Virus record (IMG/VR): IMGVR_UViG_3300030101_003566
Span: 1-57,967 of that record
Source: a virus
Taxonomy: Duplodnaviria > Caudoviricetes
DNA: 57,967 nucleotides
Direction: 5' to 3' (one strand)
Of this stretch, positions 1 to 15,177 are shown piece after piece. The first letter of the stretch is position 1. Every line of letters begins with the position of its first letter. A program made the translations under genes and the position numbers. The notes beneath the pieces were generated by a model. It saw only the letters and a list, made by a program, of their open reading frames with translations, searched no databases and was not told the origin of the DNA.

Positions 1-1
1 T

Positions 2-1335: not shown

Positions 1336-1384
1336 ACACTATTGTAGGCATTAATCAGTCTAAAGAACAAGACTTGACATGAAG

Positions 1385-1528
1385 TTATTTTTTATAAAGT
1401 TCTTTTTCCAACTCGGCTAAAGGGTGCAACTCCTCTTTTAGCTGTTGCAGTAACTCTTCGTTGAAGATCTCTTGATCGTCCTCTTCAACGTGCGTCTGTT
1501 CTATCTTCTCTTCTTCATAATCTCTCAT
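1385..1528 (-). CDS. Small acidic hypothetical protein (47 aa, not in ORF track)
   Basis: Manual translation MRDYEEEKIEQTHVEEDDQEIF...; ATGA overlap with the upstream ORF. Confidence 0.55.
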   Translation of the reverse strand: MRDYEEEKIEQTHVEEDDQEIFNEELLQQLKEELHPLAELEKELYKK

Positions 1529-1743
1529 AGCATATCCTCAAAGTAAGTTATTTTTATTCTAAGTTTATCTAGTTCCTGGCGTGAGGATTCTTGTAAATGA
1601 TCGTCCTCTTTATGCGATGCTAAAGTATTAACCAACAAACGTAACGCCGTTTGCGTTTCATGCGACAGTTCATTGTAGCGACTAAGCTCGTGCCAGTTTA
1701 ATAAATCAGTTGAGTTTTTTTTCATTATCACCTCCGTCTTCAT
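1525..1743 (-). CDS. Hypothetical protein (start probably the internal Met near 1725)
   Basis: ORF in a leftward operon; GGAGGTG SD before the internal ATG. Confidence 0.6.
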   Translation of the reverse strand: MKTEVIMKKNSTDLLNWHELSRYNELSHETQTALRLLVNTLASHKEDDHLQESSRQELDKLRIKITYFEDML

Positions 1744-1978
1744 ATTTATTTTTAAATTTCTGCGAAACTATGTTGTGTTTTTTAGTTAGTTCTTGAATGT
1801 CAACACCTATGTCTTTGCCTGTTTCCAGTCTGACATAGTCATGTTGATGGTCGTTTAACAGTTGATGTTTTTTAAAATAAACTTGATACCATGCCATAAT
1901 TTCTTGACAAACCATGGCATACTCACCAATGTCTATTATTTTTTGCCTGATGTCTTCTAAATCGTGATCGTCAATCAT
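1706..1978 (-). CDS. Hypothetical protein
   Basis: 90-aa ORF in a leftward operon. Confidence 0.65.
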   Translation of the reverse strand: MIDDHDLEDIRQKIIDIGEYAMVCQEIMAWYQVYFKKHQLLNDHQHDYVRLETGKDIGVDIQELTKKHNIVSQKFKNKYEDGGDNEKKLN

Positions 1979-1982
1979 AATG

Positions 1983-2228
1983 TTAGTCCCTCTTATAAGC
2001 GGTTAAAAATTTACTAAGTTCTTTTTCATTCATTTTCAGTTCTTTGCCTATTTTACTGTAGTAATCCCTCATCATGACAGCTACCATTTCTCCAGCTGTG
2101 CGATGTTCATAATGTGCCAACAGATCTAACTTATCTCTGGTAGCATTACGAATGGCCATCGTAGTCCACTTGGTTTTATCTTTTTCTATTTTACTTCTTT
2201 TTATTTCCGTCTTACCTTGTATTTTCAT
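1983..2228 (-). CDS. Putative ribbon-helix-helix DNA-binding regulator
   Basis: KWTTMAIRNATRDKLDLLAHYEHRTAGEMVAVMM fits a strand-helix-helix pattern; AGGAG SD. Confidence 0.55.
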   Translation of the reverse strand: MKIQGKTEIKRSKIEKDKTKWTTMAIRNATRDKLDLLAHYEHRTAGEMVAVMMRDYYSKIGKELKMNEKELSKFLTAYKRD

Positions 2229-2237
2229 AACTGCTCC

Positions 2238-2387
2238 TTATAAATCTGCTTGATCATCGTAATGCGGTCCAGAGTCTTGCTCTAAGCACTCTCGTGCATA
2301 CTTAGCCGCTTCTTCTTCAGACATACCCATGTCTAAACCTTCTTCATACTTATACTCTAAATATTCATCGTTTATTTCACAACTCAT
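2238..2387 (-). CDS. Small acidic hypothetical protein (49 aa, not in ORF track)
   Basis: MSCEINDEYLEYKYEEGLDMGMSEEEA...; GGAGG SD and ATGA overlap. Confidence 0.6.
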   Translation of the reverse strand: MSCEINDEYLEYKYEEGLDMGMSEEEAAKYARECLEQDSGPHYDDQADL

Positions 2388-2773
2388 GCTTTATCCTCCT
2401 TTTTTTTATCTAATACATTTAAAATATCAAGAGGCATACCGTCTGGAAACCTACGCCAGTTCTTCTTACCTTGCTCTACCCTATCTTGATAATTTTCACG
2501 ACTTTTATTTTTGATGTAGTTTTCATATTCACTTTGCTCTCTTTTTATCTCATCTTTATAATACTGCACTCTGACTTTACAAAGATCTATGGTTCCTTGT
2601 TGAATTGCGATCATTTTTTCTAAACTCTGTTCCATTTCAAGTAAATATTGTTCGTGCATTGTTAGCGTTTCCTGCATTTCGCTCAAAAATGAATTATGAA
2701 AGTTATTTTCATTTGGAGTAAAGCCGTCGTCCAATAGTTTTTGCACATAACTTTTTGTTTCTATATCTGTCAT
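2384..2773 (-). CDS. Hypothetical coiled-coil protein
   Basis: 129-aa ORF with AGGAG SD. Confidence 0.7.
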   Translation of the reverse strand: MTDIETKSYVQKLLDDGFTPNENNFHNSFLSEMQETLTMHEQYLLEMEQSLEKMIAIQQGTIDLCKVRVQYYKDEIKREQSEYENYIKNKSRENYQDRVEQGKKNWRRFPDGMPLDILNVLDKKKEDKA

Positions 2774-2790
2774 TATAATCTCCTGTCTGG

Positions 2791-3597
2791 TTAAAATTTA
2801 TTTTTAAGGTCTTCTGCTACTTCATCAACTATCGTGTTGTTAAAGGTCGTTTTGTTAAACTGCTTACTAGCATTTAACCCTTTGTTATACACTCTGAGCA
2901 AGTTGGCAATGTAGCCATTTCTATTAGACTGTCCGTGCATATCTGCACTATTTTTTGAAATAGCTTTATACATACGGTCTAAATCGAAATCTCGGTGCCT
3001 CATTAAGTACAACAGACCCATTAAAAATCCACTTTTTTTGTACTCTCTGAAATATGGCTCTAAAGAGAGGATAAACTCAGCTCTCATTTTAGCTAATTCT
3101 AGGTTTTGAATCTTCATCGTGCCTTCAGTAAAACCTGATGATCTTATGTTCGCAACTGTTGTCAACAGTAACACGCTGAAATGCACTCCCAGTTTATACT
3201 TATCAATAAACCATTCGGCAGTTCGATAATTACTGTGATTGGTTTTACCATTACTATTTGTTTCTTCATCAATTTCTTTACCAACCCAATAGTGTAAGTA
3301 ATCCTTTTCTGACCATCTACTGGTGGTGCTGTTTAGACAAGCGATGTCGCTTTCAGTAAGCACTTTGGTTATAAAATATGGGACAGGTAAATTTAATTTT
3401 TGGTAAGCGAAGAAACGATGTTGTCCATCTAAGATCTGAAACTCATCATTTACCTGGATCGGTTGGTGTAAGTCTTTTATTTTAATACTATCAACTAATT
3501 TATTTACCCATGTTTGTTTGATCGGTCGATTGTTTGGATATAAAGTAAACAACTCATAATCTTGACTGTATTCTATTTCCATTTTTTCTTTTTTCAT
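2791..3597 (-). CDS. ParB/Srx N-terminal domain protein
   Basis: NNRPIKQTWVNKLVDSI...QPIQVN...ILDGQHRFFA; start moved to ATG 3597, which has a GGAG SD. Confidence 0.8.
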   Translation of the reverse strand: MKKEKMEIEYSQDYELFTLYPNNRPIKQTWVNKLVDSIKIKDLHQPIQVNDEFQILDGQHRFFAYQKLNLPVPYFITKVLTESDIACLNSTTSRWSEKDYLHYWVGKEIDEETNSNGKTNHSNYRTAEWFIDKYKLGVHFSVLLLTTVANIRSSGFTEGTMKIQNLELAKMRAEFILSLEPYFREYKKSGFLMGLLYLMRHRDFDLDRMYKAISKNSADMHGQSNRNGYIANLLRVYNKGLNASKQFNKTTFNNTIVDEVAEDLKNKF

Positions 3598-3949
3598 AAT
3601 GAATTCTCCATCGCTAATTAATCTTTTCCCTCCTTCCTTGTTTATTAGACCTTCGTCTAATTGATTTAACTTAGTAACTTTAGAATACTTTAAATTTTTT
3701 ATATTGCAAGACCTTTTCAACACTTTTTTTATATTATTTTAAATATAGTATGTGTTAAATAATATGGATAATACTGATATGGATATGATGATAAGTTCAG
3801 GGGCAACGATACAACATGCCCCAAATGCCCCCTCACTCATCTATAGGATTTACAATGATTAATTATAAAACAGGTCAAATTTACCATAGTGGGGTAGCAA
3901 AGTCCAACTATTTACTGTAATATATCCATAGAAATAAACGAGTAAGTAG

Positions 3950-4615
3950 TTGATTATGGACGATAATTTACCAAGAAAGGTGAGCCGTACCCCCTCAGCC
4001 CAAAAAACCATTGATCTTAACGATGAATTTATCGTAAATTGGCGTGTAAACATGGCCGGTAAGCGTAGTTTTTACTTACGAGATAGTCAGGTAAACTGTT
4101 TATTGATTAATTATTCGAAGAAAGGTAGTCATTCCTTCGCTTATGATTATCGACACGGCAAAACCCATAAATCTAAGGTTTTTGGGTATTTTCCAGCGAT
4201 GACGACCGAAGATGCTCGGCTCAGGGCACTAGAGATTGATAATGATTGCATCAAAAACAACAAAAGTTATGATGATTTGTTTGAGATACACCGGTTGCCA
4301 AAGACATTGTACTTTTTAATGACACCTGGTGGTCAGATAAAAATTGGTCAGTCTACTGACCTATTCAATCGGATTCAAACATCAGGAGAATTAAGTGAAG
4401 GATCTGTAATTTTGGGTTTCCGAGAGGAGAGTAAATTTGTTAATGAGAGTAAATTAAAGTATTTGTATCGCACTTTTCAAGAAAAAGGTAGCGAATATTT
4501 TAAAAAAAACGACTTTTTGTTAGATCTTATTGCTCGTTTTTGCGTTTTTCGGGATTCTGATGTGCAAATTGCACGGCTCATGGGGCAACAAGACATAGAA
4601 ATTAGCCAAAAATAG
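3950..4615 (+). CDS. Integrase-type Arm DNA-binding domain fused to a GIY-YIG/T5orf172-like domain
   Basis: LRDSQVNCLLINYSKKGSHSFAYDYR...FGYFPAMTTEDAR (Arm-binding pattern), then LYFLMTPGGQIKIGQSTDLFNRI. Confidence 0.65.
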   Translation: MIMDDNLPRKVSRTPSAQKTIDLNDEFIVNWRVNMAGKRSFYLRDSQVNCLLINYSKKGSHSFAYDYRHGKTHKSKVFGYFPAMTTEDARLRALEIDNDCIKNNKSYDDLFEIHRLPKTLYFLMTPGGQIKIGQSTDLFNRIQTSGELSEGSVILGFREESKFVNESKLKYLYRTFQEKGSEYFKKNDFLLDLIARFCVFRDSDVQIARLMGQQDIEISQK

Positions 4616-4629
4616 GATTTTTTTCCCAT

Positions 4630-4867
4630 TTTCTACTATGCAACTGCTTACAAAAACTTTTTTTAAAAACATTTTGCAGAATACACAAATATTTTAGGAA
4701 ACTAGGAAAAATAAGATAAGAATAGGGTTTTAAGGATTTATAACTAGGAAAATTTTAGGAATTATTCCTAGTTTTTAGGAAAAATAGCATAAATAATCAA
4801 AAAACCGACTAAAAAAATAGAATTTTTTTTATTTTTTTTTAATTTCTAAGGGTGTGCATAGTAGAAA
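4630..4867. repeat. 13-bp inverted repeat enclosing TAGGAA iterons (origin- or pac-like)
   Basis: TTTCTACTATGCA 4630-4642 and TGCATAGTAGAAA 4855-4867; TAGGAA at 4695, 4703, 4745, 4756 and 4776, inverted at 4765. Confidence 0.75.
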
Positions 4868-4879
4868 TTAGGACAAAAG

Positions 4880-4908
4880 TTGCTATTTTAAGTTAATTTT
4901 ATGATAAT
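4880..4908 (+). promoter_or_regulatory. Sigma70-like promoter of terS (possibly leaderless mRNA)
   Basis: TTGCTA-17-GATAAT; ATG 4915 lies 7 nt downstream with no SD. Confidence 0.45.
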
Positions 4909-4914
4909 TATTCA

Positions 4915-5412
4915 ATGGGATCACATAAATCAGTAGCATTACGTACAGAAAAAGACTTAACTTTAAAACAAAAGAAGTTTTTAAAGATATTAGTTAAAAA
5001 TTGGGGAATGATTTCGCAAACAGAGGCGGCATTACAAGCCGGATATGGCAAAAATGAAAATTCAGCGAGAGTTATGGCTAGTAAAATGCTGGATTCAAAG
5101 AAAAACCCACATATTTCAAGAGTTTTAGAAAACATGTTAGCCAAAGAAGCTGAGAAATATGAAAAAGATAAATTAAGACGTTACAAAACATTTGAAAGAT
5201 TACGAGATGGGGCAGAAAATAAAGGGCAGTTTACAGCATCAATCAATGCCGAATATCGATCAGGTCAATTAGCTGGATTGTTTGTAGATAAAAAAGAGAT
5301 ACAACATTCAACACTTGAAGGTATGTCTAGAGAGCAGTTAGAAACCAGATTGCAAGAGCTTGAGGATAAGATAGGTGCAAATACAATCATAATACAAGAA
5401 AGTCAAGAATGA
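4915..5412 (+). CDS. terS: Terminase small subunit
   Basis: LTLKQKKF...SQTEAALQAGY...ARVMASKML HTH typical of TerS; C-terminal GQLAGLFVDKKEI. Confidence 0.8.
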   Translation: MGSHKSVALRTEKDLTLKQKKFLKILVKNWGMISQTEAALQAGYGKNENSARVMASKMLDSKKNPHISRVLENMLAKEAEKYEKDKLRRYKTFERLRDGAENKGQFTASINAEYRSGQLAGLFVDKKEIQHSTLEGMSREQLETRLQELEDKIGANTIIIQESQE

Positions 5413-5522
5413 GTTAAATCATATCTACTTATAGTTATTGAGCACAACTAAAATTGTTAATATCCAAATAGCTAATGGAATAGATAAAATTATCGTAATT
5501 TTTACAAATAAAATTAGTCTAT

Positions 5523-5807
5523 TCATTCTTCATTATATTGCCCACATTCACATGGAACTCTTGAATGTATATCATCGTAAGATGATGATAAATTATAGTA
5601 CCCTTTACCAGCACACATTTTACATTCTGTGAACGCCCCCTCTCTATAACAATTTAGTTCTAATTTTAAGCTTTTCTCGTCAAGATCTTTATATTCTGCA
5701 TACATAGTTTCCTCTATCCACTTTAACAACTCTGCTCGGCTGTCATCTTCCATAGCATAAAGTCTAATTCGCACTAAATCATCTATCATTTCTTCTCTAG
5801 TCATCAT
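5523..5807 (-). CDS. Hypothetical protein with CxxC...CxC Zn-finger-like tail
   Basis: ECKMCAGKG...PCECG; GAGGTGAATGATG start. Confidence 0.7.
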   Translation of the reverse strand: MMTREEMIDDLVRIRLYAMEDDSRAELLKWIEETMYAEYKDLDEKSLKLELNCYREGAFTECKMCAGKGYYNLSSSYDDIHSRVPCECGQYNEE

Positions 5808-6011
5808 TCACCTCTCTTTAATAAAAAATCTATCCATAATAATTTCTACATCACCAACAATATCGCAAAATTTATCTTCTGCTTCTGGAGTTCTCTCACC
5901 ATCTTCATCACAGACTGAGTCAATAGCCGAAAACTCCAAAATATGCTCTGACAATTCTGAATATAGCTCAACCCATATTTCTGTTGGTATTTTTATTTTA
6001 TCTCTCATCAT
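5808..6011 (-). CDS. Small acidic hypothetical protein
   Basis: 67 aa; junction-repeat RBS and start. Confidence 0.75.
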   Translation of the reverse strand: MMRDKIKIPTEIWVELYSELSEHILEFSAIDSVCDEDGERTPEAEDKFCDIVGDVEIIMDRFFIKER

Positions 6012-6207
6012 TCACCTCCTCTCTATTTCTAATAAAATTAATAAGTTTTTCCCAGTCGCCTTTATATGCTTTACCAGTGAACAAAACTTGATTGTTCTCA
6101 CCATGTCGCATTGTTATCCTAGAGTTTTCTAAACTTAGAATAATTTCTGCACTTCCTTCAGCTGGTTCTTTAAAATCCCTTTTTCCTAGTTCATTTCTAG
6201 TCATCAT
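5998..6207 (-). CDS. Hypothetical protein
   Basis: 69 aa; junction-repeat RBS and start. Confidence 0.75.
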   Translation of the reverse strand: MMTRNELGKRDFKEPAEGSAEIILSLENSRITMRHGENNQVLFTGKAYKGDWEKLINFIRNREEVNDER

Positions 6208-6349
6208 TCACCTCCCACCCTAATAATTTGCAAATCTTGTCATAAGTTTCTTGTCCAGAACTAGAAAATCTATCATAATCCCAACCCATTAAATCTACTA
6301 GTTCAAGCAACTGTTCAAATTGCTTTTGTGTAATTTTTTTATTCATCAT
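6197..6349 (-). CDS. Small hypothetical protein (50 aa, not in ORF track)
   Basis: MMNKKITQKQFEQLLELVDLMGWDYDRFSSSGQETYDKICKLLGWEVNDD; junction-repeat start. Confidence 0.7.
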   Translation of the reverse strand: MMNKKITQKQFEQLLELVDLMGWDYDRFSSSGQETYDKICKLLGWEVNDD

Positions 6350-6362
6350 TCACCTCTCTTAT

Positions 6363-6575
6363 TTATGTCCCCCTATTGGTTACTGTAAAATATTCTGCCA
6401 TTCCATAAATCCTTATTGACTCATCTTCTTTTAAATTGGCAATCTTGCGTAAGTCCTCAATATCCAAATTAAACTCTTCGTCAATAAAATCTATAAAGTA
6501 ATGCGTTCTAGTTTCGTTATCGTACCCACCTTCCTCTGTCCATTGACAGAGGTATTCATTTTCGCAGATAGTCAT
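6363..6575 (-). CDS. Hypothetical protein
   Basis: 70 aa; AGGGGGCAAAATG start. Confidence 0.7.
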   Translation of the reverse strand: MTICENEYLCQWTEEGGYDNETRTHYFIDFIDEEFNLDIEDLRKIANLKEDESIRIYGMAEYFTVTNRGT

Positions 6576-6583
6576 TTTGCCCC

Positions 6584-6772
6584 CTAATCTTCGTCAATAA
6601 TACAGTTACCCAGTTTATTGTAAGCACTGACAATATCTGGATCAGTATCATCTGTGCCACCATTTGCTTTTATTTCTTCCTTTAACAATCCAACTATTTC
6701 AAATATTTCAGCAATATTTAACTTGACTGAATGTTCTTGCGATTGCAATTTGTTTTCTTGGTCTCTTTCCAT
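6584..6772 (-). CDS. Hypothetical protein
   Basis: 62 aa; AGGGGGCAAAATAATG start. Confidence 0.65.
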   Translation of the reverse strand: MERDQENKLQSQEHSVKLNIAEIFEIVGLLKEEIKANGGTDDTDPDIVSAYNKLGNCIIDED

Positions 6773-7053
6773 TATTTTGCCCCCTCTATTTTTTCAAACT
6801 CCTTTTCCCAACCTACTCTTAAAACTGGGCAATCTTTGTCGTCATTACTTGCGAACAATGCCCCACCATCATTTCCTTCGTCATCTCTTGATGGATATAT
6901 CCATGTGCCATCATCAAGTAATAAACAAATAGGGGCAGATTCCCACCCCATTTTTTTACAATCGTAACTTGACATATATTGCACTTCTACAATCTTCTTA
7001 CCGACAAAATCTTTCTCGGCTTTTTCACACCAATGTGCATATCTATTTTTCAT
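6772..7053 (-). CDS. Conserved phage hypothetical protein
   Basis: VGKKIVEVQYM...LDDGTWIYPSRDDEGNDGGALF; GGAGGTAG SD. Confidence 0.8.
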   Translation of the reverse strand: MKNRYAHWCEKAEKDFVGKKIVEVQYMSSYDCKKMGWESAPICLLLDDGTWIYPSRDDEGNDGGALFASNDDKDCPVLRVGWEKEFEKIEGAK

Positions 7054-7298
7054 TGTGCTACCTCCTCATCTTCTGTTAAAATCGTACCATTGGATAATTC
7101 AAGATCATAAAACTCACTAGCATTCCACGACCACCAATTTTCTATCATCTTTTCATTCATTATTGTCCAATCGCAAGACAATCCAATATCTAGATCGCCA
7201 GATGTTGCGTCTTCAAAATGTTTAACTAATTGTTTTCCAAATTCAATTTCACAATCACTTAAAACATCATTTATTTTAATTACTGGTTTTTTCATCAT
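7050..7298 (-). CDS. Hypothetical protein
   Basis: 82 aa; ATGA coupling. Confidence 0.7.
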   Translation of the reverse strand: MMKKPVIKINDVLSDCEIEFGKQLVKHFEDATSGDLDIGLSCDWTIMNEKMIENWWSWNASEFYDLELSNGTILTEDEEVAQ

Positions 7299-7306
7299 TT
7301 ATTTCC

Positions 7307-7624
7307 TCAACTATTTTTGTGTATCCATGATCCATAATTATGATTTACATAATCAATGACATCATGAAAATTGTTAAAATCACGATAAACATATCCTTCG
7401 CCATAATAAATAGCGTGAATGATATAAAATCTAGGAAAATCTTTTAAATCACCTCTCATATCATTGTCTTTTTCAGCTATAAATATTTGAAATCCATTAA
7501 ATTGAAAAGATGGGCATTCATCATTCGGATATGAAACATTTTTCCATTGTTTTGGTATGTTTAAATCTTTCAAACACTCAACTTCCCACCCTTGATGTTC
7601 TCTTACTAATTTAGTCATAATCAA
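7307..7624 (-). CDS. Hypothetical protein, first gene of the leftward early operon
   Basis: WKNVSYPNDECPSF motif; AGGAG SD; upstream TTGACA promoter. Confidence 0.75.
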   Translation of the reverse strand: MIMTKLVREHQGWEVECLKDLNIPKQWKNVSYPNDECPSFQFNGFQIFIAEKDNDMRGDLKDFPRFYIIHAIYYGEGYVYRDFNNFHDVIDYVNHNYGSWIHKNS

Positions 7625-7648
7625 ACTCCTATAATTTAATGTACCTAA

Positions 7649-7676
7649 ATCTTAACATATAAAGGATATATGTCAA
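7649..7676 (-). promoter_or_regulatory. Sigma70-like leftward promoter containing a shared operator-like spacer
   Basis: TTGACA-16-TAAGAT on the - strand; spacer nearly identical to 9071-9090. Confidence 0.65.
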
Positions 7677-7698
7677 ATATCTTTATATTATAAAACCC

Positions 7699-7727
7699 TT
7701 GCAAATATCCTGATTTTTCAACATACT
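7699..7727 (+). promoter_or_regulatory. Sigma70-like promoter of a candidate sRNA
   Basis: TTGCAA-17-CATACT. Confidence 0.55.
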
Positions 7728-7733
7728 AAAAAT

Positions 7734-7817
7734 ATGTTTTTTCATTGGGACTTATCGTCCTACCTCGAAAAGGGCGAAATGCCCATCTTTTTAGCCCCAT
7801 TTATGGGGCTTTTTTTT
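7734..7817 (+). ncRNA. Candidate trans-acting antisense small RNA (or attenuator leader)
   Basis: Promoter, three hairpins (GGAC/GTCC, GGGC/GCCC, AGCCCCAT/ATGGGGCT plus U-tract); single-stranded arms complementary to CGAGGTA and CAATGAAAA. Confidence 0.55.
7793..7817 (+). terminator. Rho-independent terminator
   Basis: AGCCCCA-TTTA-TGGGGCT followed by T7. Confidence 0.8.
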
Positions 7818-7824
7818 GAAATAA

Positions 7825-8241
7825 TTGAATAAAATGTTAATAAATGAGAAAAAATTGTGGTTAATCATCAACCAGATACAAAAAATACATAAAAATTGGC
7901 TAGTTTTTAGGTTAGAAAGTCGCACTATCAATGGCATTCCGGACGTTTTTTGTTGTTGTAATGGCGTTGTTTTTTGGCTCGAATTGAAATCGTCAAACGC
8001 TAATAAAAAAGGCATTTCTAAATTTCAGTATAATTGGCATTATGATTATTTTGTTAGTGGTGGCATTTCATTTATTCTTAATTACCATGACACGCAGTCC
8101 ACGCTCGAACTTCTAGCGATTCATGAGCCACGCACCATGCATCAGGTTTTGTCAATCACCATGAGCCGTGATCCGAGCAAGAAAGATCTTGAAAAAAGCA
8201 TCAATCATATCATTAACCATATTATCAAATTATATTCTTGA
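7825..8241 (+). CDS. VRR-NUC-like PD-(D/E)XK nuclease / resolvase
   Basis: NEKKLW...RLESRTINGIPDV...FWLELK...QYNWH...GGISFIL. Confidence 0.75.
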   Translation: MNKMLINEKKLWLIINQIQKIHKNWLVFRLESRTINGIPDVFCCCNGVVFWLELKSSNANKKGISKFQYNWHYDYFVSGGISFILNYHDTQSTLELLAIHEPRTMHQVLSITMSRDPSKKDLEKSINHIINHIIKLYS

Positions 8242-8267
8242 CCATAATCATATAACCATAATCATAT
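8241..8267. repeat. Tandem ACCATAATCATAT(A) x2, related to the array at 10187-10270
   Basis: Direct reading. Confidence 0.7.
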
Positions 8268-8357
8268 TATCGATCAAAATACCTGATACCAGACTATTAA
8301 AAAATATTTTTAAGTGCCTTAAATTGCAAATAAGGAAGTCTTTTTTTGGCAAAATGT

Positions 8358-8391
8358 AAAAAAAACGCCGATTAATTAAAATCGGCGTTTT
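8358..8391 (-). terminator. Rho-independent terminator (possibly bidirectional)
   Basis: AAAACGCCGATT-AATTAA-AATCGGCGTTTT with an A8 run on the left, between convergent genes. Confidence 0.75.
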
Positions 8392-8418
8392 CGAGGTAAC
8401 CTGAGAGATCTTATTTAA

Positions 8419-8544
8419 TTAATCAGAATATCTACCGGTACGATTTTCAAGATCCTTCATATCCTGGTGATGTAATATTATGATTAGGCCGATACCGGCA
8501 AACATCAATCCCAGGCAAAACCCTATTATAAATGTCATCATCAT
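8419..8544 (-). CDS. Small single-TM membrane protein (41 aa, not in ORF track)
   Basis: MMMTFIIGFCLGLMFAGIGLIIILHHQDMKDLENRTGRYSD; GGAGGTA SD. Confidence 0.65.
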   Translation of the reverse strand: MMMTFIIGFCLGLMFAGIGLIIILHHQDMKDLENRTGRYSD

Positions 8545-8548
8545 TGTT

Positions 8549-8761
8549 TTACCTCCCTAAAATATAACGATCAGTTTGTTTTTGTAATGCTTTTTTAAAT
8601 AACGGCAGTGCTTCCTCATATGTATAATCAAAATACCTTTGATGAAATAAAACATTGTCTTGAATCGTGGCATATATGGTAAATGAGCCGTCAGGGTGTT
8701 TTTCAACACCCCCATGTATATCGGCATAACTTCCATTGATTCCTATAATATCGTTTTTCAT
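8549..8761 (-). CDS. Hypothetical protein
   Basis: 70 aa; GAGGTG SD. Confidence 0.7.
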   Translation of the reverse strand: MKNDIIGINGSYADIHGGVEKHPDGSFTIYATIQDNVLFHQRYFDYTYEEALPLFKKALQKQTDRYILGR

Positions 8762-8988
8762 TATAATTCACCTCTCTTAAATTTTGCATAATCGCTGTTT
8801 TCTCGCTCGTTTATTTTTGCTTGTATTTTCAAATCATTAAAGTAATTTTGAATATCAATATAAGCAGTCTCATACCAGTTAACCTTCTCAATCATTTCAA
8901 ATAACTGCGCCGGAATACCATATTCTTGGGGGCGGTCTTTAAAAAAATTGTGTATCATTGCTTTTTGTTTTTTGTTTAGTTTTCTCAT
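8761..8988 (-). CDS. Hypothetical protein
   Basis: 75 aa; GAGGTG SD; MRKLNKKQK start. Confidence 0.7.
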   Translation of the reverse strand: MRKLNKKQKAMIHNFFKDRPQEYGIPAQLFEMIEKVNWYETAYIDIQNYFNDLKIQAKINERENSDYAKFKRGEL

Positions 8989-9019
8989 TGTTACACCTCA
9001 TTATTAATTAAAATCTATA

Positions 9020-9093
9020 TAAATATATCATTTATATACAATAAGTCAAGATAAATTATTTAGCTTGTAAATATATCATTTATATGTTAACTT
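9020..9093. promoter_or_regulatory. Divergent promoters with an 18-bp direct repeat (operator-like)
   Basis: TAAATATATCATTTATAT at 9020 and 9068; TTGACT (-) at 9049 and TTGTAA-17-TAACTT (+) from 9065. Confidence 0.6.
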
Positions 9094-9127
9094 TATATGG
9101 ATTTCAACATAAAACGAGGTAAACACA

Positions 9128-9283
9128 ATGAAAACATTTAAATATAGAGTTACTTGGATATCATGTTTTAAATATCCTGATATATTTCTTGTCAACACAT
9201 TAGAAGAAGTGAATCATTTAAAATATCATGGTAGAGAACAACAATATTTAGTAGAAGTAGAAGAAGGGAGCTTTACATTATGA
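9128..9283 (+). CDS. Small hypothetical protein (51 aa, not in ORF track)
   Basis: CGAGGT SD; MKTFKYRVTWISCFKYPDIF... Confidence 0.65.
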   Translation: MKTFKYRVTWISCFKYPDIFLVNTLEEVNHLKYHGREQQYLVEVEEGSFTL

Positions 9284-9447
9284 GTAAAATTACATTAGAA
9301 CAAGTTATAAAAGCCCATAGAGTATTGGGAGATTTTTTACATCAAGAACAATCTAATTATCATGAGAAAGTTAAAGAAATATTATGGGAATATATTTCTA
9401 AAAATGATGAAGAAGAAATATTTAAACGTATAGCGGAGATAAAGTAA
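9280..9447 (+). CDS. Small hypothetical protein (55 aa, not in ORF track)
   Basis: ATGA coupling and GGGAG SD; MSKITLEQVIKAHRVLGDF... Confidence 0.6.
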   Translation: MSKITLEQVIKAHRVLGDFLHQEQSNYHEKVKEILWEYISKNDEEEIFKRIAEIK

Positions 9448-9487
9448 TGAATAAAATTATAAATACGATAATGCAATTAAAAAATAA

Positions 9488-9543
9488 CCAGGAGTTTTTC
9501 CAGGCTCTTCCAGGCTCTTCCAGGCTCTTCCTGGCTTTACCGG
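9488..9543. repeat. 10-bp tandem repeat CCAGGCTCTT giving phased CCWGG sites
   Basis: CCWGG at 9488, 9500, 9510, 9520 and 9530. Confidence 0.9.
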
Positions 9544-9574
9544 AATTTATATATAAAATAATATAAAGTATTTC

Positions 9575-9602
9575 TTGTATATATAAAGGAAAGTACTATA
9601 AT
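9575..9602 (+). promoter_or_regulatory. Sigma70-like early promoter
   Basis: TTGTAT-16-TATAAT, AT-rich upstream, CGAGGTG SD downstream. Confidence 0.65.
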
Positions 9603-9630
9603 AGAGGTGTAAGTTAAATTAATAAACGAG

Positions 9631-10149
9631 GTGAAAACAATGAAATATAATTATAAGGCAGTAGATTTTGATTCAGGCGTACAAGTAGATAATTATCCAT
9701 GGGGCTTTAAATTAAGAACTAGTGTTCGCTATTGGATTGAGACTAATAAAAAAGGTAATAGATTCATTAAGCAAACTTTAAACCCAAAAACAGATAAATG
9801 GTGCAAGCCTAAAATGTCCACTTATTCAAATGTTATGGTCATGACAATAGAAGAAAAAGACAATAAAACTTTTGTATCTTATGAGGGTATTAGTAATTAT
9901 TCATCTATTGAAGAAGTTTGTCTATTTGAAAATACACATAAAGATAATCTTAATAATTTACAACTTAAGCAAATATGTAAATTGAAAGCTTATCATGCTG
10001 TGATGGAAAATGTAGAGGTTAGCGTTAAAGCTGTTACTACTGAAAAAGAAATAAAAGAATCAAATAAAAAACGAGATGAAGCACTAAATACAATAACCAA
10101 TACAGCCAATAAACTTTATAATCAATGTTTGATTAAAAACAATTTATAA
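9631..10149 (+). CDS. Conserved phage early hypothetical protein (start likely ATG 9640)
   Basis: VDNYPWGFKLRTSVRYWIE...QTLNPKTDKWCKPKMSTY; own promoter and terminator. Confidence 0.8.
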   Translation: MKTMKYNYKAVDFDSGVQVDNYPWGFKLRTSVRYWIETNKKGNRFIKQTLNPKTDKWCKPKMSTYSNVMVMTIEEKDNKTFVSYEGISNYSSIEEVCLFENTHKDNLNNLQLKQICKLKAYHAVMENVEVSVKAVTTEKEIKESNKKRDEALNTITNTANKLYNQCLIKNNL

Positions 10150-10157
10150 TTTTAATC

Positions 10158-10183
10158 AGGGGCTAGAAATAGCCCCTTTTTTT
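10158..10183 (+). terminator. Rho-independent terminator
   Basis: AGGGGCTA-GAAA-TAGCCCCT followed by a T-run. Confidence 0.9.
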
Positions 10184-10186
10184 AAT

Positions 10187-10270
10187 CATAACCATAACCA
10201 TAACCATAACCATAACCATAACCACATACACATAATCATATACACATAATCATATACACATAATCATATA
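10187..10270. repeat. Tandem arrays (CATAAC)x6 and (CACATAATCATATA)x3
   Basis: 10187-10222 and 10229-10270. Confidence 0.9.
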
Positions 10271-10297
10271 ATCATTAATATTGATGGATCAGATCTT

Positions 10298-10370
10298 GAA
10301 AAACGGATCCGTTTTTCCTGGTTTTCCTGGCTCTAGTTACCACCAGGAGCCACCAGGAGCCACCAGGAGA
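10298..10370. repeat. 20-bp perfect palindrome followed by a second CCWGG array
   Basis: GAAAAACGGATCCGTTTTTC 10298-10317; CCTGG at 10317 and 10326; (CACCAGGAGC) about x3 with CCAGG at 10343, 10353 and 10363. Confidence 0.9.
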
Positions 10371-10400
10371 AATTATATAAAAAATGATATAAATTATTTC

Positions 10401-10428
10401 TTGCATATATAAATGATTCTAGTATACT
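10401..10428 (+). promoter_or_regulatory. Sigma70-like early promoter, paralogous to the one at 9575
   Basis: TTGCAT-16-TATACT; shared GTAAGTTAAAT-AATAAACGAGGT leader. Confidence 0.7.
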
Positions 10429-10463
10429 TAAAGAGTAAGTTAAATAAATAAACGAGGTAAACA

Positions 10464-10790
10464 ATGACAGACAAAAAAATTACAAACGAGGATATAGCAA
10501 AAAAAGCGTTTAACATAAACAAGCAAATAAAAAAGCTAAAAGAAAATAGTCAGGATATAAAAAAACTATTCAAGCTACAAGAAAAATTAAGTGCTGTAGG
10601 TGAAGACTTAAAAAGTAGAGCAAGGGAAGAAGATACAAAGCTAAACTTTCCTAACCTTGACATTCAAATTTCAAGGTCTAAAGATGACCTAGTAAAATTT
10701 GATGTTAATTCTTTTAAGTCCAAGCATCAAAAACTATATAATAAATTTCTAGTACCTAAACCAACTGTGTATAGTTTTTTAATTAAATAG
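10464..10790 (+). CDS. Coiled-coil early protein with a YqaJ-C-terminus-like motif
   Basis: KFDVNSFKSKHQKLYNKFL; monocistronic unit. Confidence 0.7.
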   Translation: MTDKKITNEDIAKKAFNINKQIKKLKENSQDIKKLFKLQEKLSAVGEDLKSRAREEDTKLNFPNLDIQISRSKDDLVKFDVNSFKSKHQKLYNKFLVPKPTVYSFLIK

Positions 10791-10808
10791 CTAACAACGC
10801 TAAAACTT

Positions 10809-10834
10809 AACGCCCAGCAATGGGCGTTTTTTTT
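10809..10834 (+). terminator. Rho-independent terminator
   Basis: AACGCCCA-GCAA-TGGGCGTT followed by a T-run. Confidence 0.9.
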
Positions 10835-10997
10835 GTGTGCAATTTAGAAGGCTCAATAATCAATCCTAAATACTTTTAAAATATAAAATAAAAAATCAGA
10901 TGCGAAAAACCCAAAACATTTATATACACACATAAAACCCAGTTGCTCACACGTAGTATGGTGGAAAAAATTCTAGTAATCACTATAATGGAGGCTC

Positions 10998-12473
10998 ATG
11001 AAGACAGAACTGATGACCACAGAACAAATGAGGCTCGAAGTCGAAAGACTTTGGATCAAGCACATTAAACTTTGTCAAGACGATTTTTTATATTTTGTGC
11101 AAGAAGTCTGGCCCGATTTTGTTTGTAGAAAAGCCAAAAATCCAGAAGATTGGGGACATCATCAGATTATTGCCAAAGAATTTACCGATATAGCTGACCA
11201 AAGAAAAGGGAGGCTCATTATCAATATGCCCCCTAGACATACCAAATCAGAGTTTGCTTCTGTTTACTACCCCGCATGGATTATTGGTAAGTATCCAAAA
11301 TTAAAAATTATGCAGGTGTCGCACAACACCGAACTGGCAGCAAGGTTCGGAGCTAAGGTTCGTAACATTATTGATTCAGCAGAGTACAAACAAATCTTTG
11401 GTGACGTAAAACTGCGTGAGGACTCCAAAGCTAAAGGTAGGTGGGAAACCAATCAAGGTGGTGAATATTATGCGGCGGGTGTTGGAGCATCGATCACTGG
11501 TCGTGGTGCGGATTTACTGATTATTGACGACCCACACACGGAACAAGATTCTATGTCCGACAGTGCCATGGAACGTGCTTATGATTGGTATACTTCTGGA
11601 CCCAGACAGCGTTTACAACCTGGAGGCTCGATTCTAGTAGTTATGACCCGTTGGGCCGAGGACGATTTAACAGGCAGACTTTTGAAGGCTCAAACGGAAC
11701 CCAAAGCAGATACATGGAAACAAGTATCTTTTCCAGCGATTCTCGACTCAGGGAACCCAGTGTGGCCAGAGTATTGGGAACTAGATGAATTAGAAAAAAT
11801 CAAAGCATCGATACCGATTCGTAACTGGTCAGCACAATACATGCAAAACCCTACTTCAGAAGAAGGTGCGATTCTTAAACGAGAATGGTGGCAACCTTGG
11901 GAGGGCGGTGGTATTCCAAACTTGATGCACGTCATTCAAAGCTATGATACAGCGTTTTCTAAAAAAGAAACGGCAGACTATTCTGCGATCACCACTTGGG
12001 GTGTATTTTTCCCAGAAGAGGGTGGGGCACCGAATATTATGTTACTCGATGCAATTAAAGGTAAGTTTGATTTTCCAGAACTAAAAGCCGTGGCCTTGGA
12101 GGCTAATAAATATTGGGAACCCGAAACGATTATTATCGAACAAAAAGCCAGTGGTGAACCACTCACTCAAGAATTTAGACGTATGGGTATACCAGTGGTG
12201 CCGTTTACGCCAACCAGGGGAAATGACAAACATACCAGAGTAAACAGTTGTGCACCTGTTTTTGAAAGTGGTGCGGTGTGGTATCCAGCTGGAGAGAAGT
12301 TTGCCGAGGATGTGATTGATGAATGTGCCGCTTTCCCAAACGGAGCGTATGACGATTATGTCGATTCTACCACTCAAGCAATACTACGATACAGACAAGG
12401 CAACTTTGTTGAGTTATACTCAGACTATGTGGATGACGAAGAACCAGTCTTTAAAGAATATAATTACTACTAG
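10998..12473 (+). CDS. terL: Terminase large subunit
   Basis: LIINMPPRHTKS Walker A, LLIIDDPH Walker B, MTRW motif, nuclease QSYDTA and YDDYVDSTTQA. Confidence 0.97.
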   Translation: MKTELMTTEQMRLEVERLWIKHIKLCQDDFLYFVQEVWPDFVCRKAKNPEDWGHHQIIAKEFTDIADQRKGRLIINMPPRHTKSEFASVYYPAWIIGKYPKLKIMQVSHNTELAARFGAKVRNIIDSAEYKQIFGDVKLREDSKAKGRWETNQGGEYYAAGVGASITGRGADLLIIDDPHTEQDSMSDSAMERAYDWYTSGPRQRLQPGGSILVVMTRWAEDDLTGRLLKAQTEPKADTWKQVSFPAILDSGNPVWPEYWELDELEKIKASIPIRNWSAQYMQNPTSEEGAILKREWWQPWEGGGIPNLMHVIQSYDTAFSKKETADYSAITTWGVFFPEEGGAPNIMLLDAIKGKFDFPELKAVALEANKYWEPETIIIEQKASGEPLTQEFRRMGIPVVPFTPTRGNDKHTRVNSCAPVFESGAVWYPAGEKFAEDVIDECAAFPNGAYDDYVDSTTQAILRYRQGNFVELYSDYVDDEEPVFKEYNYY

Positions 12474-12485
12474 GGTATGTAAATT

Positions 12486-14879
12486 ATGGCAGAAAAATTA
12501 TTAAGTCCTGAAGAACAGGACGCTATCACTAAAAACGTTGGCGAAGTTACAGCTGATAATATGCAAGAAGTAGAGGCTCCAGAGGTTGAGATAGAAGCAG
12601 ACCCTGATGCCATGCCCATGGATCAAGGACCAGAGATGACCGAAGAACAAAGTGCGGCCATCGACTTTTATCAAAATTTAGCAGAAACCATGGATGAGCG
12701 AGTCTTACAAAGATTAGCCATGGAACTGATAGCCGATTACAAAAAAGACAAAGAAAGCCGTTCAGACTGGGAGAAGTCATATACTTCAGGTTTAGATCTG
12801 CTCGGTTTTAAATACGACAGCGAGTCTCGACCCTTTGAAGGAGCTAGTAGTGTCACGCACCCATTGTTAGCCGAAGCGGTCACTCAGTTTCAAAGTCAAG
12901 CCTACAAAGAATTGCTACCTAGCGATGGACCAGTGCGAACTCAGGTGGTGGGTGAAATAAACGAAGCTAAGGAGAAACAAGCGGAACGAGTCAAAGAATT
13001 CATGAACTACATGATTATGGACAAAATGGAGGAGTATACGCCAGAGTTTGACCAATTATTATTTTATTTACCACTTGCTGGTAGTGCTTTTAAGAAAGTT
13101 TACTACGATGAAATGGTAGAACGAGCAGTCAGTAAGTTTGTACCTGCCGAAGATTTGGTGGTGCCGTACTATGCTACTGATTTAACCGACTGTGAACGTA
13201 TTACGCATGTGTTAAAAATGTCAGAAAACGATATTTTGAAAAAACAAAGAGCTGGTTTTTACCGTGATATAGATATTTTGCCGTCTAGACAAGACAACAG
13301 CGACGTGCAAGACAAGTACGACGAATTACAAGGCATGAGTCGTAGCGATCAAGCCGATTATCAGTTCAACATTTTAGAAATGCACGTTGATTTAGACCTC
13401 GATGAGTACGAAATGGACAATGAGGAAAAAAATATCAAGGTGCCGTTTGTCGTAACTATCGATGAAGGGTCCATGGAAGTGTTATCCATCTACAGAAACT
13501 TTGATATGAAGGATGAAAAACAGCGAAAAAGGCAATATTTTGTGCATTATAAGTTTTTACCTGGACTTGGTTTCTATGGTTTTGGCTTAATTCACATGAT
13601 TGGTGGCTTAGGCAAGACAGCGACCGCTGCTTTACGTCAATTACTAGACGCAGGTACGCTTTCCAACCTACCAGCTGGATTTAAAAGTCGTGGTTTGCGT
13701 ATTCGTGACGATGATCAGCCATTTCAACCTGGTGAATTCAGAGATGTGGATGCTCCTGGGGGAAATATTAAAGATCAATTTCAAATTTTACCGTTCAAAG
13801 AGCCATCTGGCACATTATTTCAGCTTTTAGGCTTCGTGGTCCAAGCTGGACAGAGATTTGCAGCAATAGCCGACATGCAAGTAGGCAATGACACGCAAAA
13901 TCGTAACGTGGGCACCACAGTTGCTCTCATGGAACGTGGCTCACGGGTCATGAGTGCGATACACAAGCGTTGTTACTATGCGATGCGACAAGAATTTAGG
14001 TTATTGGCCAATGTTTTTGCAACTTATTTACCACCGATGTATCCGTACGCAGTATATGGCGGTAATCGTCTTATAAAAGTGATGGACTTTTCACCAGAGG
14101 TAGACGTAATTCCAGTTGCTGACCCAAATATATTTTCAATGGCACAAAGAGTGACTTTAGCACAGACACAATTGCAAATTGCACAGTCAAATCCGCAAAT
14201 GCACAATATTCACGAGGCGTATCGTCGTGTTTATGAGGCTTTGGGCACTAAAAATATTGATGCTATATTAAAACCAAAGCCACAGAAAACACCGAAAGAC
14301 CCAGCTATTGAAAATATGGAAGCGTTACAAGGTAAAATGCCAACTGCTTTTGCCACTCAAAACCATGATGCTCACATTCTATCGCATACGGCATTTATGC
14401 GTACTCGTATGGTACAGATTAATCCACCGGTGTACGCTATGTTACAGGCTCATGTCAGTGAACATATAAGTTTAAAAGCAAGGGCTCAAGTATTAGAAAT
14501 GGTCAACTCAAAGAACCCAGACAATGTTTTGGCTCTACAACAAGAGCGACCAGAGCAGTTTATGATAATTTTAGAATCTATGGTAGCTGATCGTATCCAA
14601 GAGTTGACCGAAGAGCTGGTTACAGCTGAGTCGGGCTTGGTGCCAAAAGACCCATTGGTGGCACTAAAACAACAAGAACTTGATTTACGAGCCATGGATA
14701 TGCAACGTCGTAGCGAAGAGTTTAATCAAGAGGAACAACGTAAAACCGCTGAGTTTTACGAGCGTATGAATTTAGAGCAAATGGAGCGTGATGACTCAAA
14801 TGCTCAAGCTAAAGAGCGTATTCGAGTAGCCGATGCCAAATTAGACATCGCTTCTAAAAAAGTTACAGGAGGTAAGTGA
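12486..14879 (+). CDS. Portal protein
   Basis: 797 aa directly after terL; HPLLAEAVTQFQ, YLPLAGSAFKKVY, LRQLLDAGTLSNLPAGFK. Confidence 0.9.
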   Translation: MAEKLLSPEEQDAITKNVGEVTADNMQEVEAPEVEIEADPDAMPMDQGPEMTEEQSAAIDFYQNLAETMDERVLQRLAMELIADYKKDKESRSDWEKSYTSGLDLLGFKYDSESRPFEGASSVTHPLLAEAVTQFQSQAYKELLPSDGPVRTQVVGEINEAKEKQAERVKEFMNYMIMDKMEEYTPEFDQLLFYLPLAGSAFKKVYYDEMVERAVSKFVPAEDLVVPYYATDLTDCERITHVLKMSENDILKKQRAGFYRDIDILPSRQDNSDVQDKYDELQGMSRSDQADYQFNILEMHVDLDLDEYEMDNEEKNIKVPFVVTIDEGSMEVLSIYRNFDMKDEKQRKRQYFVHYKFLPGLGFYGFGLIHMIGGLGKTATAALRQLLDAGTLSNLPAGFKSRGLRIRDDDQPFQPGEFRDVDAPGGNIKDQFQILPFKEPSGTLFQLLGFVVQAGQRFAAIADMQVGNDTQNRNVGTTVALMERGSRVMSAIHKRCYYAMRQEFRLLANVFATYLPPMYPYAVYGGNRLIKVMDFSPEVDVIPVADPNIFSMAQRVTLAQTQLQIAQSNPQMHNIHEAYRRVYEALGTKNIDAILKPKPQKTPKDPAIENMEALQGKMPTAFATQNHDAHILSHTAFMRTRMVQINPPVYAMLQAHVSEHISLKARAQVLEMVNSKNPDNVLALQQERPEQFMIILESMVADRIQELTEELVTAESGLVPKDPLVALKQQELDLRAMDMQRRSEEFNQEEQRKTAEFYERMNLEQMERDDSNAQAKERIRVADAKLDIASKKVTGGK

Positions 14880-15037: not shown

Positions 15038-15177
15038 TGCGATATTTATTGTTATTTATATGTTTTTGTTTTCCAACCCTTGCGTTAGCACATCATGAAC
15101 TTGTCAGTAATAATTTAAATTTATTAGTTTTAACAATATTTTTATTATATTTAAGTTTTAAATTAGGTCTAAAATAA
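15037..15177 (+). CDS. Small hydrophobic protein (46 aa, not in ORF track)
   Basis: TAATG coupling on both sides; two hydrophobic segments. Confidence 0.55.
   Translation: MRYLLLFICFCFPTLALAHHELVSNNLNLLVLTIFLLYLSFKLGLK

Follow-up and report, generated by a model that had tools for sequence, protein, structure and literature searches.

A covarying small RNA family in phages related to Pelagibacter phage HTVC023P, with unpaired motifs complementary to translation start sites

The uncultured phage genome in IMG/VR record IMGVR_UViG_3300030101_003566 (57,967 bp, 36% G+C; the whole genome, referred to here as the window) encodes a large terminase (TerL) with 75% identity to its counterpart in Pelagibacter phage HTVC023P and carries, in a 209-bp gap between a leftward early operon and a + strand nuclease gene, what is very probably a genuine, conserved and previously undescribed small RNA gene of a new structured family. 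The phage is marine and has kinship with the SAR11 viruses that are the most abundant in the ocean. The predicted RNA of about 84 nucleotides (nt) presents two single-stranded arms on either side of a hairpin, one complementary to start-codon regions and the other to Shine-Dalgarno (SD) sequences. A first-pass annotation of this DNA had proposed that such an RNA clamps the ribosome-binding sites and start codons of early genes. The computational analysis reported here supports a discrete small RNA gene on the + strand through a conserved, covarying family, and leaves the idea that this RNA clamps the SD and AUG of early genes plausible but tentative.

Gene anatomy and the RNA family

The promoter, arms, hairpins and terminator that the first-pass annotation had described are all present in the sequence where it had placed them. 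The elements of the gene are as follows.

7699..7727, + strand: sigma-70-like promoter, read from the sequence, with TTGCAA at 7699-7704, a 17-nt spacer and CATACT at 7722-7727
7734..7817, + strand: predicted small RNA of ~84 nt, its 5' end placed from the -10 element and its 3' end from the U run
7734..7747, + strand: 5' single-stranded arm AUGUUUUUUCAUUG (DNA ATGTTTTTTCATTG), read from the sequence
7740-7747, + strand: conserved core UUUCAUUG of the 5' arm, which includes the anti-start CAU; 0/10 changes in comparison with a close relative
7746..7762, + strand: hairpin 1 in the fold, a GGAC/GUCC core stem (7748-7760) with loop UUAUC, extended by G.U and U-A pairs
7761..7771, + strand: 3' single-stranded arm UACCUCGAAAA, read from the sequence, with UACCUCG at 7761-7767
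7762-7766, + strand: ACCUC core of the 3' arm (RYCUC in the family), an anti-Shine-Dalgarno segment that pairs with GAGGU in predicted duplexes
7772..7784, + strand: hairpin 2 in the fold, GGGC-GAAAU-GCCC, also listed as terminator-like
7785..7792, + strand: U-rich linker AUCUUUUU before the terminator; nearly all members of the family have a CUUUU-like linker
7793..7817, + strand: intrinsic terminator from the terminator scan, a stem-loop at 7793-7810 followed by eight U (7810-7817)

An 88-nt RNA from this locus folds into three hairpins (-27.7 kcal/mol, z = -4.1), and none of 200 shuffled sequences was as stable. No Rfam family reached its gathering score anywhere in the window, and the sub-threshold matches were driven by the terminator. 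The U-rich module ahead of the terminator resembles a feature of Hfq-binding small RNAs.

A covariance model derived from two sequences, the window RNA and its counterpart in a close relative (R1), matched the window RNA at 7733-7817 with 108.6 bits and found diverged copies elsewhere in distant relatives, while a second model (R2; 80.1 bits for the window RNA) covered 21 loci, with a member in 21 of 82 sources. A consensus-pattern scan of IMG/VR combined with R2 yielded 8 further full-length copies among 37 pattern loci, for a total of 20 distinct full-length sequences in related uncultured phage contigs. These share a single order of elements, i.e., a promoter-like site, UUUCAUUR, hairpin 1, RYCUC(G/A)A, hairpin 2, a CUUUU-like linker, and a terminator with a U run. 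The promoter-like sites lie directly upstream, in the same place, and vary among lineages (TTGACA-17-CATACT, TTGAAA-17-CATACT, TTGACA-17-CATAAT, TTGCAT-17-TACTAT, and TTGAGA-16-TAGGAC). No family member was found in the parts searched of HTVC023P (1-18,827), 023Pt_psg01 (1-20,000) or HTVC027P (1-22,000), the last being the phage to which the transcriptome tables of PMC12753301 refer.

Covariation was counted on 18 distinct rows of the family alignment (A6). Stem positions were paired in 98.5% of 271 cells, two-sided changes occurred in 13 of 17 pairs (60 cells), no shuffle among 500 matched the observed score on any of five measures, and the covariation score was 0.642 as compared to at most 0.133 for slid-partner controls; these figures are to be read with the reservation, which counts against our interpretation, that covariation favours the structure and strand of the model because the alignment was fitted by that model. 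Every stem contributes: 4 of 6 pairs of hairpin 1 show two-sided change (with 99% of cells paired), as do 4 of 4 pairs of hairpin 2 and 3 of 3 modelled pairs of the terminator, which retains its U run. A further point on the negative side is that the promoter of the window RNA agrees with the consensus at only 8 of 12 positions, for a scan threshold of 9 of 12. Another early promoter of the same phage, upstream of gene 10464, reads TTGCAT...TATACT.

Comparison with the close relative (L001/L004/L007), in which the cassette is conserved and the nuclease protein is 89% identical, places the differences mainly in loops and linkers. In counts for which a one-base shift in the terminator part of the alignment was corrected by eye, all five positions of the hairpin-1 loop have changed and none of 16 positions in the arm cores, and the stems are unchanged except for one compensatory A-U to G-C pair in hairpin 1. 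The promoter differs at 0 of 6 positions of the -35 element, 1 of 6 of the -10 element, and 3 of 17 of the spacer. As aligned by MAFFT, conserved classes carry 6 changes in 51 positions and variable classes 14 in 33 (Fisher p = 0.003), although 3 of the 6 conserved-class changes were produced by the alignment itself, since AGCCCC...GGGGCT is the sequence of the terminator stem in both. Pattern scans of IMG/VR found near-identical copies in only two contigs, both of the close lineage, the remaining 5 and 7 matches being chance matches in coding regions, and a search of 185,579 prokaryote genomes for such copies gave 11 chance matches, none of them with the ensuing hairpin and terminator.

With regard to the functional strand, the promoter-like site and the terminator U run are oriented on the + strand in every member, and G.U cells outnumber A.C cells by 39 to 3 overall and by 10 to 1 in the inner stems; the G.U excess together with this orientation argues for a functional RNA on the + strand. 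The first-pass annotation had itself named an alternative, in which the minus strand is functional and GAGGUA, a hairpin and AUG form a split ribosome-binding site that drives a 20-codon open reading frame (ORF; MKKHIFSMLKNQDICKGFII). Such an arrangement corresponds to the split ribosome-binding site of the T4 gene 38 type. Read on the minus strand, the locus does give CGAGGTA-hairpin-CAATGAAAAAA, like neighbouring starts, and the ORF is open over 20 codons in the close relative, with a ratio of non-synonymous to synonymous change (pN/pS) of 0.48 that is based on only 8 changes (2 synonymous and 6 non-synonymous). However, the length of the ORF varies from 4 to 20 codons among members (4, 5, 10 or 20, with one 65-codon read-through), about half of the members read GAGAC in the place of the SD, the nearest minus-strand promoter in the scan is at 8066, and both the preference for G.U over A.C and the placement of promoter and U run are those of a + strand transcript. 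On these comparisons we consider the minus-strand explanation largely refuted and its probability very small.

The least probable explanation in our assessment is that the locus is a non-functional remnant, i.e., an inverted fragment of an early-gene start lying between two terminators, with a promoter-like site that arose by chance. The boundary is prone to recombination, with different neighbouring genes even in the two lineages that are closest to each other, and real starts, among them ATGAAAAACGAT of gene 8761, look like the complement of the arms. By contrast, 20 distinct homologues with covarying stems, conserved arms, promoters and terminators at different genomic positions would be unexpected for decaying DNA.

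Unpaired motifs and predicted pairing with early-gene starts

Two unpaired motifs are conserved in the family: UUUCAUUR, the complement of which is YAAUGAAA, is present in 18 of the 20 distinct members, and RYCUC in 19 of 20, with a Y before CUC in all 20. The two residues before CUC are AC in nine members, GU in nine, GC in one, and UC in one. Allowing for wobble, the complement of RYCUC is GAGGU, with which ACCUC pairs perfectly and GUCUC through G.U and U.G; read on the opposite strand, GUCUC would be a poor SD. In L015 and L017, hairpin 1 has been lost and both arms are kept side by side as UUUCAUUAGGCCUC, suggesting that the two motifs are the core and the hairpin a spacer. The order and spacing of the motifs match the complement of SD-spacer-AUG-AAA and, at the level of sequence, UUUCAUUR and RYCUC are copies of the initiator anticodon CAU and of the anti-Shine-Dalgarno sequence of 16S ribosomal RNA.

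The mechanism that we propose is one in which the product of an independent small RNA gene, equipped with a sigma-70-type promoter of its own and an intrinsic terminator, would act in trans. With hairpin 1 extruded, the two arms would pair with GAGGU and (C/U)AAUGAAA of a messenger RNA (mRNA), thus covering the ribosome-binding site and start codon and blocking initiation. The matching starts would be those of early genes around the locus, with the best match at 8988, the start of the leading gene in the leftward mini-operon. Late genes, which have AGGAG sites and ATGGC starts, would escape pairing; accumulation of the RNA would then damp or shut off early-gene translation. Since early starts match and late starts do not, damping of early-gene translation is the likely role. 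The present analysis demonstrates the anatomy of the gene, its family, structure and strand, and the complementarity. We infer the expression of the RNA (a search for sequencing runs covering window positions 6800-9300 listed no RNA run), its action in trans, the identity of its targets and its timing, and the explanation as a whole, mechanism included, falls in our judgement just short of being probable.

The seven starts that had been listed as targets in the first-pass annotation exist as written there. The pattern GAGGTR-N2-4-CAATGA occurs 7 times in the genome, counting both strands, and all 7 occurrences are at gene starts (7053, 8544, 8988, 9128, 9640, 10464, and 57761); the late region (10600-57000) contains 35 GAGG-N3-9-ATG sites, none of which has this pattern. 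A co-fold scan of the 38-nt RNA core against every 40-nt segment of the genome (11,586 segments) identified 10 distinct sites at -13 kcal/mol or lower outside the RNA's own antisense. Seven of these are early gene starts, as listed below, and the other three are internal (33731+, 36138-, and 43961+).

8977..8999, - strand: best predicted target, SD and start of gene 8761-8988, the first of a leftward mini-operon (GAGGUGUAACAAUGAGAAAAC); -17.3 kcal/mol
9115..9137, + strand: predicted target, SD and start of gene 9128-9283; -14.8 kcal/mol
10453..10469, + strand: predicted target, SD and start of gene 10464-10790; -14.6 kcal/mol
7283..7308, - strand: predicted target, SD and start of gene 7050-7298; -14.3 kcal/mol
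7046..7064, - strand: predicted target, SD and start of gene 6772-7053; -13.8 kcal/mol
9627..9645, + strand: predicted target, SD and start of gene 9640-10149; -13.6 kcal/mol
8539..8555, - strand: weaker predicted target, SD and start of the 41-amino-acid membrane-peptide gene 8419-8544; -13.3 kcal/mol in the sliding scan and -10.0 kcal/mol in a fixed window

In the predicted duplexes hairpin 1 is retained and both arms are paired with the SD and start region, the core of the 5' arm with CAAUGA(A/G)AAAC, confirming the earlier description of a hairpin flanked by SD- and start-complementary segments. Six of the seven listed starts are among these sites, and the start at 7298, which had not been listed, joins them. 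Over all starts, mean pairing was -8.9 kcal/mol for early genes (n=25) and -3.9 kcal/mol for late genes (n=54; Mann-Whitney p = 1.8e-6), a contrast that mirrors a real split in start-site types within the genome: in early genes (~5500-10500, both strands) the usual site is GAGGTR at a short distance from the start, frequently preceding CAATGA or an overlapping TGATG junction, while late genes mostly have AGGAG sites and frequent ATGGC starts. Among full shuffles of the arms, 1 of 100 reached six starts at -13 or better.

Related phages give some further support. In the close relative, the top site of the RNA is the start of the first gene in the equivalent leftward operon (-18.7), and the distal part of the arm, which has changed to AUCG, pairs there with CGAU, while the corresponding AUGU of the window pairs with AAAC at its own top target. 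In four lineages with ACCUC (G001, L031, L018, and L019), start-like windows rank at or near the top: they make up 5 of the top 10 in G001 (3 with AAUGAAA, the top one probably being internal), 2 of 4 top sites in L031 and 3 of 4 in L018, and the top match in L019. GAGGU-type starts are also denser in ACCUC genomes (30 in 58 kb in the window and 16 in 25 kb in G001) than outside them (8 in 44 kb in G003 and 6 in 24 kb in G004). The pattern GAGGTR-N2-4-CAATGA accounts for 6 of 14 GAGG-ATG sites in window positions 5000-10600 and for 10 of 356 in the loci of 78 relatives, a contrast that is only descriptive because several of the "element-free" loci hold a family member. When a longer complement of the GGAUUUCAUU seed was sought, a single candidate start came up in G004 (MKSSDEITDL..., at 19915) and none in G003.

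Several results weigh against the clamp. In 18 of 100 trials, control RNAs in which CAU and CCUC stay in place and all else is shuffled match as many starts as observed, which indicates that the multi-target pattern is what the conserved core alone gives, as would any generic anti-SD/anti-AUG RNA, and that the rest of the arms is not detectably tuned. The seventh listed target, the methyltransferase start at 57761, pairs poorly once target structure is counted (-4.6 kcal/mol). Start sites are not preferred in the GUCUC lineages, which make up about half of the members: among the top four sites of each locus, few are start-like in the seven GUCUC loci scanned (L011, L035, L039, L033, L027, L034, and L041), where the best partners are often G-rich CGGGACGG repeats on the opposite strand, and start-like sites are likewise few in the CACCUC loci L036 (top four) and G004 (top ten). 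Several of the sites flagged as start-like fall within such repeats. A target gene conserved across lineages was sought and none was found. Gene 8761 of the window is the orthologue of the close relative's top target and begins with ATGAAAAACGAT, the complement of the relative's arm; it pairs with the window RNA at -10.7 kcal/mol as compared to -19.5 kcal/mol with the relative's RNA, and a G to A change in the relative's 3' arm is unmatched by its CGAGGUA targets. Common ancestry, with the arms arising as an inverted duplicate of a start region, could account for the match between arms and targets in place of co-evolution.

The same results bear on a different explanation, namely that the RNA is a real family member whose CAU and RYCUC loops bind a protein (as a sponge or within a ribonucleoprotein), a host RNA or repeat-bearing phage transcripts, with the early start-site match a by-product of motifs that mirror any ribosome-binding site. 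This fits the 18 in 100 controls that match as many starts, the GUCUC and CACCUC lineages with no start-site preference, the missing conserved target gene, and the frequency of the CGGGACGG repeats as best predicted partners in GUCUC loci. It also fits a weak UUU/GAA helix that, according to the fold and the family alignment, could close the two conserved motifs into an internal loop, and the likeness of C-rich CGUCC repeats on the RNA's own strand to its CGUCUC segments. On the other hand, the motifs have the order and spacing of the complement of SD-spacer-AUG-AAA, their variation at R and Y preserves pairing to GAGGU, both arms are kept without the hairpin in L015 and L017, early and late starts differ strongly in the window, GAGGU-type starts are more frequent in ACCUC lineages, and no gene is constantly linked to the small RNA across loci that would suggest a protein partner. 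We regard this explanation as possible, although rather doubtful.

The repeats themselves are intergenic CGGGAC(G) arrays on the minus strand (L027 3900-4049, L035 859-898, L033 3810-3849, and L039 3669-3708), which read CGUCCC on the strand of the RNA and there resemble the CGUCUC segments of the GUCUC-subfamily RNA.

Returning to the proposed clamp, the 41-amino-acid gene 8419-8544 on the minus strand is the last of the operon that opens with the top-ranking predicted target start. Its product has one hydrophobic helix (MMMTFIIGFCLGLMFAGIGLIIILHH...), is conserved in almost all related loci (>40), and may be a membrane-active early protein. Type I antitoxin RNAs of the Sok type repress a small toxic membrane peptide through the start region at the same locus. 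In the 3' untranslated region of the membrane-peptide gene, a second copy of UUACCUCGAAAA (8388-8399, - strand), with 11 nt identical to the 3' arm of the small RNA, lies directly upstream of the strong terminator (8361-8392) that closes the leftward operon 8988-8419; it is conserved in L004 while the flanking bases differ. The fold pairs this anti-SD copy with the membrane-peptide SD in L004, and no such fold-back is predicted in the window. As a separate observation, L015, L017 and L019 carry TTCGAGGTAG, complementary to the RNA's own CUACCUC arm, after the U run of the small RNA terminator, and in the window TTTTCGAGGTAA at 8392 likewise follows a terminator.

The nuclease gene and other elements of the genome

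The + strand gene 7834-8241, here termed the nuclease gene since its top PHROG matches are annotated as DNA helicase and endonuclease, starts only 16 nt beyond the small RNA. On the other side, the first gene of the flanking leftward operon (7307-7618, - strand) has a promoter TTGACA-16-TAAGAT at 7676-7649. One further feature lies between the RNA and the nuclease gene.

7817..7825, + strand: extended -10-like TGAAATAAT of the nuclease gene, 8 nt before its ATG

Eighty metagenome loci were retrieved with a nuclease protein profile, and the upstream DNA was inspected in 35 of them; L006 is identical to the window, L007 is 90% identical, and almost all others are at most 63% identical. In almost all of these diverged loci the gene lies ~60 nt from a divergent gene and has no SD, and the relatives read that have no upstream RNA carry TGnTAxxxT 6-11 nt ahead of the ATG; the exceptions are L024 (with a weak family match there) and loci that start too near the gene. 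The nuclease gene lacks an SD in every relative read, which suggests that its mRNA is possibly leaderless or nearly so.

The proximity of the two genes raises the alternative that the RNA is a cis-acting 5' leader or attenuator, in which the promoter at 7699 would drive the nuclease gene and the terminator at 7793-7817 would be regulated. The RNA does immediately precede the nuclease gene in the same orientation, and the weak family match in L024 has the same placement. However, the position of the RNA gene varies, and most members lie elsewhere; in L011, L027, L033 and L039, for example, the RNA is found ~1.3 kb further downstream than the nuclease start, and in L011 the terminator faces convergent genes, leaving no downstream gene for the RNA to control. 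In addition, the fold shows no alternative anti-terminator pairing, and the nuclease gene keeps its extended -10-like site in the window and in the RNA-less relatives read, indicating that its promoter is probably its own and the upstream RNA element an independent cassette. We therefore judge an attenuator improbable and, from these arrangements, consider the small RNA probably a transcription unit separate from the nuclease gene. A + strand leader peptide (a 32-codon ORF from 7734, i.e., 32 amino acids) was also considered and was rejected because its ATG is missing in the close relative.

The first-pass annotation had also raised superinfection immunity as a role. This is not borne out by the gene content, as the scanned proteins included neither an integrase catalytic domain nor a repressor, nor by the HTVC023P-type phage HTVC027P, which the available part of PMC12753301 describes as lytic. 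No tRNA (transfer RNA) or tmRNA (transfer-messenger RNA) gene was found in the window, and blastn of window positions 6500-9500 against the phage collection returned zero matches.

A direct repeat AAATATATCATTTATAT at 9023-9039 and 9070-9086 flanks the divergent promoters of genes 8988 and 9128, and the same motif (ATAAATGATATAT) recurs next to early promoters in L004 and, in L013 and L019, next to the promoter of the small RNA. The motif is possibly the operator of a regulator. Intergenic tandem repeats are present at 9498-9536 (TTCCAGGCTC, 3.9 copies), 10183-10270 (a TAACCA/14-nt array) and 10340-10369 (CCACCAGGAG, three copies), and could be iterons or regulator sites. Two of the three contain CCAGG, and the phage encodes a cytosine-C5 methyltransferase-like gene. 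The latter (N-terminus MNHLDMCSGIGGW) runs off the window end at 57761-57967 and has its C-terminal part at 65-679; as joining the window ends gives a stop after 76 codons, either the gene is interrupted by the ends of the record or the record lacks a few bases. In HTVC027P (L098), a further non-coding RNA could reside in a 550-nt G+C-rich stretch between divergent genes (17670-18219), which has no annotated genes and lies close to repeats of the CTTGAAGCTTG type.

Three further genes were noted. ORF 3950-4615 on the + strand gives a weak match to an integrase-arm-type DNA-binding domain (22.5 bits, below the cut-off of 27), and the protein encoded at 4915-5412 on the + strand (165 amino acids) is close in length to the annotated HTVC023P small terminase (168 amino acids). 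The protein encoded at 2791-3597 on the minus strand has no Pfam match and contains a DGQHR motif of the kind known from ParB-type domains.

Comparison with known systems

Small RNAs of lytic phages are barely known. In its available text, a 2016 paper (PMC4933390) names only the T4 band C/D RNAs before its own two, the available text of a 2025 review (PMC12197685) does not contain the term 'early gene', and in that of PMC9599517 we found nothing on RNA; a full-text literature search for 'pelagiphage' with 'small RNA' returned unrelated papers only. A conserved, covarying regulatory RNA offers a handle on the timing of gene expression in phages that apparently use host-type promoters in this region, and the family model can be used at once for annotation of marine viromes and for transcript searches in metatranscriptomes. 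If the clamp is true, it would be a simple, RNA-only way of telling early from late messages. The general form of this idea, in which RNAs of lytic SAR11-type phages would clamp a whole class of start sites (GAGGU ... AAUGAAA) and so turn off early and possibly host translation, we consider unlikely at present.

The first-pass annotation had pointed to the bipartite C4 and CI antisense RNAs of P1 and P4, and this analogy holds for function and not for descent or biogenesis. C4 is excised from the transcript of the operon that it controls and functions in lysogenic immunity. The window RNA, in contrast, has its own promoter and terminator, is not processed from a target operon, has many predicted starts as targets and belongs to a phage with cultured relatives reported to be lytic, and Rfam C4 was absent from the 32 matches at E up to 10 in window positions 7000-8600. 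According to the available part of PMC12197685, C4 of P1/P7 is similar in size, and short exposed segments pair with two stretches of an mRNA around a ribosome-binding site and block translation. In both RNAs the structure presents the pairing segments, a likeness at the level of mechanism only.

Among RNAs of virulent phages, the T4 band C/D RNAs and sRNA1 and sRNA2 of PAK_P3, as described in the available part of PMC4933390, are abundant intergenic RNAs of ~100 nt in lytic phages with a suspected role in translation. They are not known to have an established function or a conserved anti-SD/anti-AUG core, the support for the window RNA is comparative, and we claim no homology.

With trans-acting small RNAs of the Hfq type (RybB, MicA, and DicF of a prophage), the window RNA shares an own promoter, a near-5' seed, a U-rich stretch, a U-tailed terminator, and several predicted targets at ribosome-binding sites. 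RybB, MicA and DicF are Hfq-type small RNAs with a 5' seed, whereas the window RNA has a seed split by a hairpin and is encoded by a lytic-type marine phage; Rfam matches in window positions 7000-8600 to RprA (24 bits, threshold 70) and MicA (19 bits, threshold 41) were sub-threshold and terminator-driven. In Gram-positive bacteria, C-rich small RNAs of the RoxS/RsaE type similarly expose pyrimidine-rich motifs that pair directly with the SD of many mRNAs, but they differ in sequence, fold and host group, and the second motif of the window RNA covers the start codon.

The functionally nearest analogy is provided by the T4 repressor RegA and the endoribonuclease RegB, proteins that shut off early mRNAs through their translation initiation regions, with a class-wide effect on early starts that spares late genes. 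While RegA and RegB are proteins, the effector proposed here would be an RNA that pairs with the SD and AUG; if the proposal is true, it would be the RNA counterpart of RegA and RegB, with late AGGAG ... AUGGC starts escaping.

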